Shown piece after piece: positions 16,383 through 55,754 of a DNA stretch of 64,000 nt (the first letter of the stretch is position 1; each line of letters opens with the position of its first letter). The DNA is taken from contig JASGHG010000001.1 of NCBI GenBank assembly GCA_047602425.1, positions 1,568,001-1,632,000 on the forward strand, written 5' to 3'. This stretch comes from Nibricoccus sp. GTDB lineage: Bacteria; Verrucomicrobiota; Verrucomicrobiia; Opitutales; Opitutaceae. The notes under the pieces were generated by a model. That model was given only the letters and a program-made list of their open reading frames with translations, was not told where the DNA came from and did no database searches. The position numbers and the translations under genes are program-made.

Positions 16383-16560
16383 GCCACAGAGAATACAGAG
16401 CTTGGACACAGAGGTCACAGAGGAAAACCGATCGGCTGCTTCAGCCTCCCACCTCTCCGTCATCAGTGTTCATTAGTGAAAATCAGTGGTAGAAAAACTT
16501 CTGCCTCATCCCTCCCAAAACTCCGTGAAGTCTGTGTCCGAGCTCCGTGCCCTCTGTGGC
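16383..16560. repeat. 178-bp MITE-like element with 40-bp imperfect inverted arms made of (C)ACAGAG units
   Basis: Left arm 16383-16422 matches the reverse complement of 16521-16560 at 32/40 positions; an internal 10-bp periodic triplet lies at 16461-16490. Confidence 0.8.
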
Positions 16561-53095: not shown

Positions 53096-54049
53096 ATGAA
53101 GCATTTCCTCAAAGAAACGGACCTGTCGTTGCGCGAAGCAGCGGCGGTCTTCGCGCAGGCCGCGAGCTTCAAGAAATCCCGCGGCCGGAAAACGGCGCCC
53201 GTGCTCAAAAATCAGACATGGGCCATGATTTTCTCGAAATCGAGTACGCGCACCCGAGTTTCCTTTGAGGTCGGCATCCATGAACTGGGCGGCAATCCGC
53301 TGTTTCTCAACAAGAACGACATCCAACTTGGCCGCGGTGAGACCATCGAGGACACCGCAAAAGTCCTTTCGCGTTACGTGCACGGCTTGGTCGTCCGCAC
53401 TTTCGATCACAATGACGTCGTCAAACTGGCCAACAGTTCATCGATTCCAGTGATCAACGCTCTCACTGATCTGCTGCATCCGTGCCAGATGTACTCCGAC
53501 GCGTTTACGCTGGCGGAACGTTGGGCCGGTCGGAGCAAAAATTTGCTCGGTTCGCTCAAGGGCAAAAAAATCGCGTTTGTCGGCGACACCGCCTGCAACA
53601 TGGCGAGTTCATGGGTCCTCGGCGCCAATTACTTCGGCATGAAGATTGCCGTCGCCGGTCCCAAAGGTTTTCGCCCCTCGCCTGCGTTCGATGCATTTTT
53701 GGCCACACAAGGATTCGAAGACGCCTACGAATTTACCACCGATCCGTACGAAGCCGTGCGTGGCGCCGATGTTGTCTATACGGACGTCTGGGTCAGCATG
53801 GGCAAAGAAGCCGAGTCGCAGCAGCGCTTAAAGCTCCTTCGTCCATATACGATCGATACAAAGATGTTTTCTGCGGCAAAAAAAGACGCGTTTTTCATGC
53901 ATTGCCTGCCGGCTTATGCGGGCAACGAAGCCACGCAGGAAGTCCTCGATCATCCGCGCTCGATCATCTTCGACCAGGCCGAAAACCGCCTCCACATGCA
54001 AAAGGCGATCATGGCCTTCCTCGCGAAAGCCGCGAAGTCGAAGCGTTGA
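53096..54049 (+). CDS. argF: Ornithine carbamoyltransferase
   Basis: 'SSTRTR', 'HPCQ', 'YTDVWVSMG', 'HCLP', 'QAENRLH'. Confidence 0.96.
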   Translation: MKHFLKETDLSLREAAAVFAQAASFKKSRGRKTAPVLKNQTWAMIFSKSSTRTRVSFEVGIHELGGNPLFLNKNDIQLGRGETIEDTAKVLSRYVHGLVVRTFDHNDVVKLANSSSIPVINALTDLLHPCQMYSDAFTLAERWAGRSKNLLGSLKGKKIAFVGDTACNMASSWVLGANYFGMKIAVAGPKGFRPSPAFDAFLATQGFEDAYEFTTDPYEAVRGADVVYTDVWVSMGKEAESQQRLKLLRPYTIDTKMFSAAKKDAFFMHCLPAYAGNEATQEVLDHPRSIIFDQAENRLHMQKAIMAFLAKAAKSKR

Positions 54050-54053
54050 GATT

Positions 54054-54508
54054 TTTTAACCGCGAATGGACGCGAATTAACGCGAATACTCCATGGCTGC
54101 GAACGATGTTCTGCTTCGGGATGAAGTGTTTCGCATCGTTGGTGCGGCGTTGGAGGTGATCAATTCGCTTGGTCACGGGCTACATGAGAAGCCGTATGAA
54201 AATGCGCTGGTGGTGGAATTTGGTTTGGCGAAAATACCCATTGAACAGCAGAAACGTTTTCCCGTGCTCTACAAAGGCGTGCAAGTGTCGGAGTACGTAC
54301 CCGACCTCATCGCGTTTGGTAGCGTGGTCGTGGACGCCAAGGTGGTCGACCGAATCACCGACCACGAACGCGGCCAGATGCTGAATTACCTCCGAATCAG
54401 CGGCCTAAAAGTTGGAGTACTCTTAAATTTCCAGCGCGCAAAGCTTGAGTGGGAGCGTGTAGTGTTGTCCGATCATTCGCGTTAATTCGCGTCCATTCGC
54501 GGTTAAAA
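54054..54508. mobile_element. Putative 455-bp element: GxxExxY gene flanked by perfect 34-bp inverted repeats
   Basis: TTTTAACCGCGAATGGACGCGAATTAACGCGAAT at 54054-54087 with its exact reverse complement at 54475-54508; mobility is inferred. Confidence 0.7.
54093..54485 (+). CDS. GxxExxY protein (PD-(D/E)XK nuclease fold)
   Basis: 'LGHGLHEKPYENAL' (GxxExxY), 'PDLIAFGSVVVDAK', 'QMLNYL', 'GVLLNF'. Confidence 0.92.
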   Translation: MAANDVLLRDEVFRIVGAALEVINSLGHGLHEKPYENALVVEFGLAKIPIEQQKRFPVLYKGVQVSEYVPDLIAFGSVVVDAKVVDRITDHERGQMLNYLRISGLKVGVLLNFQRAKLEWERVVLSDHSR

Positions 54509-54527: not shown

Positions 54528-55754
54528 ATGAAAATCGTCCTCGCTTACTCCGGCGGACTCGACACGTCCGTCATCGTCAAGTGGCTCAAGGAAACATACG
54601 ACGCCGAAATCGTCACTTTCGCGACCGACGTCGGCCAGGAAGAGGAACTTCGTGGCCTCGATAAAAAAGCCAAGCGGACCGGCGCCTCTAAACACTACAC
54701 GCTCGATCTCGTCGAAGAATTTGCCCGCGACTTCATCTTCCCGATGATCCGCGCCAACGCTATTTACGAGGGCCAGTATTATCTCGGCACCTCGATCGCG
54801 CGTCCGCTCATCGCCAAAGCGCAGGTCGAAATCGCCCACAAGGAAAAAGCCGACACCGTCGCGCACGGCGCCACCGGCAAAGGCAACGACCAATGCCGCT
54901 TCGAGCTCACGTACATGGCGCTAGATCCAAAACTCCAGATTATTGCTCCATGGAAACTGGAAAACTATCGCGCTGAATTCCCCGGCCGCGCCGAGATGAT
55001 CGCCTACTGCGCAAAGCACAATATTCCCGTCGAAGCTTCGCTCAAGAAGCCATACTCGATGGACCGCAACCTTCTTCACATCTCCTACGAAGCCGGCATT
55101 CTCGAAGATCCGTGGTTCGACCCGACGACGAAGGAAAACAAGGGCATGTTCAAACTCTCCGTCTCGCCGGAAGACGCACCCGACAAACCCGAGTACGTCG
55201 AAATCGATTTCGAAAAAGGCAACGCCGTCGCGATCAACGGCAAGAAGCTCACGCCCGGCGCGCTGCTCAAAGCCCTCAACAAGCTCGGCGGCAAACATGG
55301 TATCGGCCGTGTTGACCTCGTGGAAAACCGTTTCGTCGGCATGAAGAGCCGTGGCGTGTACGAGACCCCCGGTGGCACGATCCTCATGCAGGCGCACCGC
55401 CAGGTGGAATCGCTCACGCTCGACCGCGAAGTGCTCCAACTCCGCGACAGCCTGATCCCGAAATACGCGCAACTCGTGTACAATGGTTTCTGGTTCGCAC
55501 CGGAACGCGAAGCGCTTCAAGCCCTCGTCGACGAAAGCCAGCGTTACGTCAGCGGCACGGTTCGGCTCAAGCTTTACAAAGGCAACATCATCACCTGCGG
55601 CCGCAAGTCGAAGTACTCCATGTACGACGACAAGATCGCGTCGATGGAAGGCGTGAAGAGCTGGTACAACCAGAGCGACGCCACCGGCTTCATCCGCCTC
55701 AACGGCCTGCGCCTCCGCGCCCGCAACCTCTCACAAGGCGGCCCGAAGATCTGA
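54528..55754 (+). CDS. argG: Argininosuccinate synthase
   Basis: '[10 protein letters not shown]', '[10 protein letters not shown]', '[17 protein letters not shown]'. Confidence 0.97.

Follow-up and report, generated by a model that had tools for sequence, protein, structure and literature searches.

Two described systems come closest to the element analyzed here. In the REPIN/RAYT system, as far as the accessible part of PMC3116915 (Bertels and Rainey 2011) describes it, a small nuclease-type gene is accompanied by dispersed repeats that can fold as hairpins. The intervening sequences (IVSs) of 23S rRNA genes, as described for Coxiella in the accessible part of PMC4990558, carry a small open reading frame (ORF) in the loop of an inverted-repeat stem within a transcription unit. 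Here, we describe a 455-bp unit with features of both, located in a 64,000-nt stretch of Nibricoccus sp. (contig JASGHG010000001.1, positions 1,568,001 to 1,632,000; family Opitutaceae), which we refer to as the window. The unit lies between argF and argG and consists of a gene of the GxxExxY/PF13366 family, whose function is listed as unknown in the part of PMC3424549 available to us, boxed by inverted arms made of repeated short cores. We found that this unit belongs to a two-part system, in which boxed GxxExxY genes occur together with similarly designed intergenic hairpins and solo arms that lack a gene. Below, G and L numbers designate the genomes and loci of our survey.

A boxed GxxExxY gene and a population of gene-less arms

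The source genome, a single 5.16-Mb contig, contains five GxxExxY genes, and all five are boxed by inverted arms of a repeated short core. This core differs from copy to copy: it is CGCGAAT in the window and CGCTAAT, CACGGAT, CACAGAG/CACGGAG, or AACGAAG in the paralogs. In its intergenic DNA, the genome also holds arms or hairpins of this design that lack a gene, about 70 in number. We listed 79 arm clusters, with cores CGCTAAT, CGCGAAT, CACTGAT/CACTTAT, and CACGGAT; a few of the clusters are GC-rich false matches. Twelve of the gene-less elements are tight pairs that form hairpins with loops of 19 to 110 nt, and the remaining arms are solo. By crude ORF calls, 63 of 75 arms are intergenic, and 44 of these 63 lie between co-oriented ORFs. 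A logo of 62 arms of the genome showed a T-run followed by a nearly fixed AAC ahead of the first core (A in 54, A in 62, and C in 60 of the 62 arms), with conservation ending immediately past the third core. When the 480 nt inward of each of 75 arms were searched with a hidden Markov model (HMM), no gene remnants were found except for two intact cassettes, indicating that the gene-less copies are not freshly decayed genes. The original prediction had cast the window unit as a lone minimal element; since most arms are gene-less, the proper unit of analysis is instead a nuclease together with a dispersed repeat population. A de novo scan of this genome for other cargo in periodic arms recovered only GxxExxY and PF05635-type cassettes, plus arms flanking host genes, and an Rfam search (E ≤1) returned no family beyond two chance-level matches. 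The genome additionally contains GTAG-tagged hairpins (GGTAGGGACG...) that resemble repetitive extragenic palindromic (REP) sequences, at L002:2774-2859 and near 5150914-5150999; these form a separate family that coexists with the AAC-core arms.

In the window, gene and arms form a single compact unit (Table 1). An inverted-repeat search of the window identified two arms of 34 nt each that are 100% complementary and separated by 387 nt. Core starts are 10 nt apart, and the spacers of the left arm are GGA and then TAA. Only 4 nt (GATT) separate the argF stop codon TGA from the left arm, and 5 nt (ACTCC) separate the left arm from the GxxExxY ATG. At the other end, the right arm encodes the last three residues of the protein (HSR) as well as its stop codon, and the argG ATG follows 19 nt past the arm. 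Because argB and argD lie further upstream, the gene order is argB-argD-argF-unit-argG; no promoter of its own is visible for the GxxExxY gene. The doubled core CGCGAATNNNCGCGAAT (≤1 mismatch) matches the window four times, every time inside the arms, compared to 0.19 matches expected by chance, and four matches were reached in 0 of 100 shuffles. Neither a DDE nor a HUH transposase gene is present within the unit, and no target-site duplication was seen around it. The original prediction had reported both of these absences along with the coordinates, the arm anatomy, the stop codon inside the right arm, the argF and argG neighbors, and the 455-bp extent, all of which we found in the sequence.

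Table 1. Coordinates in the window of the GxxExxY unit and its neighbors, with the arms of the four paralogs in the source genome
Feature	Position	Strand	Details
Left arm	54054..54087	no strand	TTTTAAC plus three CGCGAAT cores at 54061-54067, 54071-54077, and 54081-54087
AAC at the arm's outer end	54058..54060	no strand	partner GTT at 54502-54504; near-invariant across the family
GxxExxY gene	54093..54485	+	130 aa
GxxExxY stop codon TAA	54483..54485	+	within the first spacer of the right arm
Right arm	54475..54508	no strand	exact reverse complement of the left arm
argF (ornithine carbamoyltransferase)	53096..54049	+	NF001986, 401.6 bits; upstream, co-oriented
argG (argininosuccinate synthase)	54528..55754	+	NF001770, 593.3 bits; downstream, co-oriented
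Paralog arms, CGCTAAT			42 nt, 95% complementarity
Paralog arms, CACGGAT			38 nt, 82% complementarity
Paralog arms, CACAGAG/CACGGAG			40 nt, 90% complementarity
Paralog arms, AACGAAG			27 nt, 96% complementarity

Arm populations accompany the gene across the family

We counted a generic arm pattern, AAC-CRCNNAT-N3-CRCNNAT-N3-CRCNNAT, in 81 genomes of the family and obtained 0 to 158 occurrences per genome, and a reversed-pattern control gave 0 in all 81; CGCGAAT arms alone were present in 33 of the 81 genomes, at up to 79 per genome. Arm number correlated with the number of GxxExxY genes, which were found with the window protein as the query (Spearman 0.51, uncorrected for shared ancestry). 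The relationship is asymmetric. All 40 genomes with ≥10 arms hold a GxxExxY gene, but the converse fails, with 11 genomes carrying the gene and no arm of the tested pattern. Among the 11 genomes that lack a GxxExxY gene, eight have 0 arms and the others have 1, 2, and 4. In each of two genera, gene and arms occur together in one genome and are both missing from another (G023/G095 and G099/G044). Large arm populations far exceed the up to two arms per gene that cassettes themselves contribute.

One expectation of the original prediction was that other GxxExxY genes would be flanked by analogous arms that vary with protein clade. Analogous arms are indeed found, at all five genes here and, by an inverted-repeat score of ≥14, at 14 of 26 such genes from five further genomes; cores do differ between protein clades, but the match between core and clade is not strict (see below).

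The window itself contains one more arm, a solo one, at 16462 to 16491 on the minus strand, with CACTGAT/CACTAAT cores and TAC in place of AAC. It departs from the generic pattern at one position, and neither a partner arm nor a gene was detected nearby.

The argF-argG cassette is old and under purifying selection

A DNA search of 40 relatives followed by junction extraction resolved 24 argF-argG junctions. The cassette occupies seven of these, namely, those of the source genome, all four congeners, and two other genera. Alignment of this junction had been suggested by the original prediction as a way to find empty sites, and seven of the 24 are empty, with a spacer of 17 to 57 nt; a further four measure 99 to 134 nt and lack arms, and the remaining six are occupied by other material. 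Individual junctions were found to hold a gene-less hairpin with CGCGGAA cores (G005), a decayed cassette remnant whose right arm is still recognizable (G019), or a PF05635 gene in 30-nt, 97% complementary arms of ATTCAAA(A) repeats (G025; L027:2317-2809). Three junctions contain an opposite-strand ORF with a prepilin-type N terminus by eye, and the N-methylation motif is present in the one that was checked (L019).

The seven orthologous genes have a ratio of nonsynonymous to synonymous divergence (dN/dS) of 0.03 to 0.09, at a proportion of synonymous differences (pS) of 0.54 to 0.94, with synonymous sites near saturation. In alignments of the genus, the arms have hardly changed, even in their spacers. 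In 21 cassettes at arg junctions of public genomes, sequences differed pairwise by a mean of 0.538 at third and 0.167 at first and second codon positions. For arm cores this mean was 0.121 (left) and 0.057 (right), and for spacers it was 0.294 (left) and 0.200 (right). Core differences are thus below those at amino-acid-changing positions, indicating that the cores are held tighter than the protein sequence. Collectively, these data show that an ancestor shared by several Opitutaceae genera acquired the window copy in the short argF-argG spacer, right after the stop codon of argF, and that the copy has since been inherited vertically, with the protein and the arm cores both under strong purifying selection.

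Gene and arms are fused, and the family has spread

To place the window cassette among its relatives, we used a scan of one genome per species, in which 335 related loci were found and 80 were kept (64 to 91% identity). AAC-anchored arms are present at 59 of these 80 loci. The cassettes with the closest proteins have CGCGAAT cores, and others have CACGAAT, CGCGGAT/CGCAGAT, or CACGGAT; CACGAAT arms accompany proteins 64 to 73% identical to the window protein. Gene ends are fused to the arms in different ways. In L011, L012, and paralog L002, the start codon is composed of the AT of a core and the G of a spacer, such that the protein starts with M-D/N-A-N; in most relatives, the frame stops just before the right arm. 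Premature stops were found in 2 of the 80 related genes, at codon 52 in L109 and at codon 32 in L071, where the stop codon takes the place of the conserved GxxExxY glutamate. As a separate observation, at 5058850-5059876 of the source genome a CGCTAAT-type left arm still opens an M-A-A-N frame, as in the cassette gene, and the interior is filled by a different tandem repeat ahead of the right arms.

Clustering of the flanks sorted the 80 cassettes into ~28 contexts, the most populated being the arg junction (32 to 37 loci); arg cassettes cluster together in a quick tree. At three arg junctions (L051, L060, and L061) the cassette is inverted relative to the operon, with arms and open frames kept. 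In L060/L061 (arms at ~1166-1195 and 1583-1612), the protein is nested in the arg clade, but six of six cores are CGCGGAT, CGCAGAT, or CACGGAT, not CGCGAAT, so that all six carry G at core position 5; this pattern reflects either concerted change or an arm swap. Of the 59 arm-bearing cassettes, 47 share their orientation with the nearest upstream ORF, whose stop codon is mostly within ~10 nt of the AAC (crude ORF calls), and the next start codon is often close behind the right arm.

Comparison of two congeners bears on how the unit is delimited. G023 has a cassette with CACGGAT/CACAGAT arms at a site where G095 has a spacer of 15 to 16 nt; the flanks are 80 to 83% identical, and the edges of the unit fall within 6 nt of AAC and GTT. 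G023 also contains three copies of one ~190-bp gene-less hairpin at three loci, which are homologous through the loop and for ~20 nt past AAC/GTT. When G095 was searched for the unoccupied counterpart of a G023 hairpin site, the match was only partial. In congeners of the source genome, the same intergenic sites hold hairpins with other cores, or none. Together with the ~28 contexts and the empty argF-argG junctions, the G023/G095 comparison upholds the idea of a mobile element for the family; the window copy itself is an old resident and not a recent jumper.

One locus has a different arrangement. At an intergenic site orthologous to positions 1334321-1334437 of the source genome, L135 (G004) carries two arms whose outer ends face each other (...GTT, 14 nt, GAAC...). 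These arms have CGCAAAG-type cores with a 9-nt period, and they look like two elements abutting at their ends or a hairpin whose topology is reversed.

The GxxExxY protein is a predicted small nuclease

The 130-aa ORF matches the TIGR04256 GxxExxY model at 124.5 bits (cutoff, 35) and PF13366 (PDDEXK_3), its sole Pfam match, at 113.8 bits (cutoff, 22), in agreement with the identity originally assigned to it. The protein contains the motifs G29-x-x-E32-x-x-Y35, D71, D81-x-K83, and Q95-x-x-x-Y99 and has no cysteine. Residues G29, E32, Y35, E42, D71, and Q95 are each ≥90% conserved, and ExK and QxxxY are present in the family consensus. An AlphaFold2 (AF2) model had a predicted local distance difference test (pLDDT) score of 94.4. 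The best folds recovered with Foldseek were lambda exonuclease, Cas4 SSO0001, 3ijm (a small restriction-endonuclease-like protein), and Hjc; matches to 3slp, 4ic1, and 4r5q had E values of ~1e-3 to 3e-2, with TM-scores of only 0.45 to 0.55. A sequence search for solved structures found none, and two homeobox matches (E ~0.7) were taken as chance. The modeled fold and the conserved residues place the protein in the PD-(D/E)XK nuclease superfamily, as a small Cas4/lambda-exonuclease-like protein with predicted nuclease activity. The family is large, with at least 7977 matches and, at 50% identity and E ≤0.001, 9005 cluster representatives. Among its members are P0137, a predicted protein of 3143 residues with 20 GxxExxY-like stretches, and several proteins of 250 to 390 residues with two GxxExxY stretches, which are apparent tandem fusions.

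A possible nuclease-repeat partnership

The anatomy of the cassettes and the asymmetry between arms and gene, in which arms imply the gene and the gene need not imply arms, fit a nuclease-repeat partnership resembling REPIN/RAYT but built on a different enzyme. By analogy to that system, we tentatively favor this explanation over the others discussed below, while holding it with less than even confidence. In such a partnership, the nuclease would work in trans with the repeat population, much as a RAYT does with its REPINs. It might recognize the repeated cores, on either duplex DNA or a folded strand, and cleave at the AAC/GTT ends or close to them. Hairpins, and sometimes the whole gene with its arms, could then be copied by host repair or recombination into short spacers behind the stop codons of co-oriented genes. 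The gene would be read from operon transcripts, with the arms supplying the start codon in relatives and the stop codon in the window.

Several results weigh against a partnership of this kind. A hydrolytic PD-(D/E)XK nuclease cannot rejoin DNA, so spread would need additional host steps. No target-site duplication was found in the 59 cassettes, and none that was convincing was found at the G023/G095 site. PF05635, an unrelated protein family, is packaged in the same style, which hints that the packaging may be determined by a factor other than the protein it encloses. A long history of vertical descent at dN/dS of <0.1 suits a host-useful gene as well as it suits a selfish one. The association between gene and arms is uncorrected for shared ancestry, and each cassette itself adds up to two arms to the count. 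Within the source genome, the spacers of gene-less CGCGAAT arms differ from those of the cassette, indicating that these arms are not recent offspring of the window cassette.

The relationship between core and protein is also loose. A core-matching check covered five arm-rich genomes without a close homolog of the window protein. No CGCGAAT-flanked GxxExxY gene was found in G005, G007, or G008, despite 11, 11, and 23 CGCGAAT arms, respectively. Conversely, a protein ~37% identical to the window protein has CGCGAAT arms in G021, and two GxxExxY genes have such arms in G052. Distant proteins can therefore carry the same arms, so core type does not simply track protein clade, and we rejected a strict core-to-protein code.

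Constraints on the arms and alternative explanations

The main rival to the nuclease-repeat partnership operates on RNA. According to this explanation, the unit is an IVS-like element whose transcript stem loops out the gene, or lets RNase III excise it, keeping argF and argG functionally adjacent; the nuclease would be cargo or a passenger, and the cores would be incidental. We regard this as unlikely, and it can coexist with a nuclease-repeat partnership. The cassette is co-oriented with both neighbors and sits between a stop codon and a start codon. In the predicted fold of a 487-nt RNA, the whole cassette is closed by a terminal stem (-196.8 kcal/mol; z -6.67; matched by 0 of 100 shuffles). 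Within the genus, hardly any change is seen in either the cores or the spacers, and spacers evolve more slowly than third codon positions. The explanation gains weight because an unrelated gene of the 23S rRNA IVS family, the PF05635 gene of G025, has the same packaging at the same junction. In addition, the IVS of Coxiella is excised by RNase III, according to the accessible part of PMC4990558.

Base pairing between the arms speaks against a stem in the transcript as the object of selection. Across the 59 cassettes, 1579 of 1770 arm cells are Watson-Crick paired. The mismatches comprise 97 transversions, 45 G.T, and 49 A.C, and they are concentrated at spacers and one middle-core position. 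G.T mismatches are not in excess over A.C on the sense strand, and this lack of strand bias gives no support for a sense-RNA stem. The transversions gather in the spacers, where pairing (0.709) only slightly exceeds that of shuffled partners (0.666; standard deviation, 0.015). The three arg-junction cassettes that are inverted to the operon still keep arms and frames, and many solo arms have perfect cores. A stem alone also leaves the three identical cores and the invariant AAC unexplained. Judged by comparison of the sequences, what is conserved is the AAC, the cores, and the repetition of cores on both sides, with perfect pairing a lineage trait. The original prediction had emphasized perfect inverted repeats, and this is true of the window; it is a local trait, as spacers are often mismatched in relatives. 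The prediction had also emphasized a 10-bp helical period. Arms elsewhere in this genome and in related genomes have periods of 7 to 9 nt, which argues against a strict helical-turn rule, and the period does not hold as a general property of the arms.

A second alternative, which we consider less likely again, is that the gene parasitizes hairpins as a homing-type endonuclease gene that invades their loops via arm homology, with the hairpins spread by another agent or serving the host. This would accommodate the large excess of gene-less hairpins over genes, and it would account for the loose relationship of core to protein, in that ~37% identical proteins can share CGCGAAT arms and 64 to 73% identical ones carry CACGAAT. 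L060/L061, which lie within the arg clade but have CGCGGAT-type cores at all six positions, look as if their arms had been swapped, and G005 has a hairpin with other cores at the same junction. However, a parasite of hairpins predicts the opposite asymmetry to the one observed, since 0 of 40 genomes with ≥10 arms lack the gene, compared to 11 genomes that have the gene and no arm of the tested pattern. The fusion of ORF ends to the arms, with the start or stop codon inside them, fits co-descent of gene and arms, and no second agent for hairpin spread was identified.

It is improbable, in our assessment, that the gene is simply a domesticated host gene (for example, in repair or defense), with arms that act as local control or binding sites and with mobility a matter of history. 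Low dN/dS over saturated synonymous divergence, conserved arms, retention in all four congeners, and the rarity of premature stops (just 2 of 80 related genes) are all compatible with host function. On the other hand, searches of PADLOC and PHROGs with the protein returned no match to defense or phage families. The distribution is patchy, with seven empty junctions and the decayed G019 remnant, and genomes carry several paralogs with different arms in many insertion contexts. Dispersed gene-less arms are left unexplained as well. A regulatory reading that is specific to arg, such as an ArgR box, was rejected because the arms occur genome-wide.

We also considered whether an integron integrase moves the hairpins as attC-like sites, which is now very improbable. 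The box consensus of attC sites is RYYYAAC/GTTRRRY, and the outer ends of the arms, TTTTAAC and GTTAAAA, resemble it. The hairpins (~80 to 170 bp) are similar in size to attC sites, and the genome encodes two integron integrases (TIGR02249, 420 and 373 bits; cutoff, 265; L204:1501-2442 and L205:1501-2424). Nevertheless, arm number is nearly uncorrelated with the integrase (Spearman 0.10 in the 81 genomes, 39 of which have the integrase), and genomes with ≥10 arms are split between 19 with an integrase and 21 without, including G076 with 136 arms. No hairpin arrays lie beside either integrase gene, and the hairpin encloses the ORF, whereas in an integron cassette the two lie side by side. The lack of co-occurrence and of arrays largely refutes this explanation. 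Separately, we noted a CGCTAAT hairpin ~1.5 kb from the first integrase gene (L204).

The least probable explanation, that the arms are ordinary REPs moved by a RAYT or IS200-type Y1 transposase of the genome, draws on two clear Y1_Tnp genes (113.8 and 61.5 bits) and two marginal matches in this genome and on the richness in GTAG-tagged REPs reported for Opitutus terrae, another member of the Opitutaceae, in the accessible part of PMC3733652, but we rejected it, because the Y1_Tnp genes lie elsewhere and are flanked by other repeats rather than by AAC-core arms, the GTAG-type hairpins are a family apart, and the arms end in AAC, not in GTAG or CGTC.

Implications

Literature on GxxExxY/PF13366, on PF05635, and on inverted repeats of Verrucomicrobia yielded no published account of this arm packaging, and a partnership of GxxExxY nucleases with hairpin repeats is apparently both widespread and undescribed. 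A nuclease-repeat partnership on another enzyme fold would be a second kind beside REPIN/RAYT, and partner DNA would give the large, uncharacterized GxxExxY/PF13366 family a testable role. A broader proposal, which we consider doubtful, is that these elements are a distinct form of prokaryotic selfish DNA. In that case, a lone, ~130-aa Cas4/lambda-exonuclease-like hydrolase would read a phased 7-mer arm code and drive the copying of hairpins and of itself via host repair, without transposase chemistry, and the arms would fold in the transcript and thereby keep insertion into an operon or rRNA harmless. If this were true, the same packaging would explain the mobility of 23S rRNA IVSs with PF05635 genes, and it may offer a handle on how rRNA IVSs reach their sites. 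In practical terms, the arms are a cheap and highly specific annotation marker that can separate such elements from host regulatory sites in operons like arg.

Comparison with known systems

The unit differs from an integron cassette in that the latter has attC at one end of its ORF and occurs in arrays with intI, whereas here the ORF lies within the hairpin. It differs from a transposon with terminal inverted repeats (TIRs) or a miniature inverted-repeat transposable element (MITE) by the absence of a target-site duplication (in 59 cassettes and at G023/G095) and of a transposase gene in the unit. Nucleases of the Cas4/lambda-exonuclease type share the predicted fold and the motifs (D, ExK, and QxxxY) with the window protein. 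Cas4 has four cysteines that bind an iron-sulfur (Fe-S) cluster and is linked to cas genes. In contrast, the window protein is half the size, has argF and argG rather than cas genes as neighbors, and has no cysteine, and it thus has no Fe-S cluster and is not Cas4 proper. Free-standing homing endonuclease genes of phages are compact and promoterless, lie between conserved co-oriented genes, and are patchy among relatives. The cassette shares this compact promoterless placement and this patchiness, and empty alleles for a homing comparison exist at argF-argG junctions and at the G095 site. However, the phage genes have no phased inverted arms and no gene-less repeats, and they belong to other nuclease families.

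IVSs of 23S rRNA genes with an S23p/PF05635 ORF are closer in architecture. According to the accessible part of PMC4990558, the Coxiella IVS is likewise an insert of ~430 to 450 nt with an inverted-repeat stem and a small ORF in the loop, inside a transcription unit, and it likewise arrived horizontally and was then maintained vertically. The PF05635 gene in periodic arms at the G025 argF-argG junction is a further link. The differences are that the IVS is inserted in a helix of 23S rRNA, whereas the window unit lies between protein genes, and that the Coxiella S23p gene is reported to be decaying and its protein not made (same part of PMC4990558), whereas the window ORF encodes a predicted nuclease under strong selection.

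REPIN/RAYT, as described in the available parts of PMC3116915 and PMC3733652, is the closest parallel for the system as a whole. Both systems include dispersed, extragenic inverted doublets able to fold as hairpins and a small nuclease-type gene flanked by repeats, with paralogs that each have their own repeat variant (PMC3116915). In both, repeat populations are found only where the gene is present, although the matching of cores to genes is not strict here, and the gene is vertically inherited under purifying selection. The enzyme differs, being a HUH Y1 transposase (PF01797) there and a predicted PD-(D/E)XK hydrolase (PF13366), unable to rejoin DNA, here. The repeats differ as well, with a short palindrome tagged GTAG/CGTC there (PMC3733652) and AAC plus three phased 7-mer cores here. 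Finally, only in the system described here are the ends of the gene fused to the arms and the cassette set into operons directly after a stop codon.

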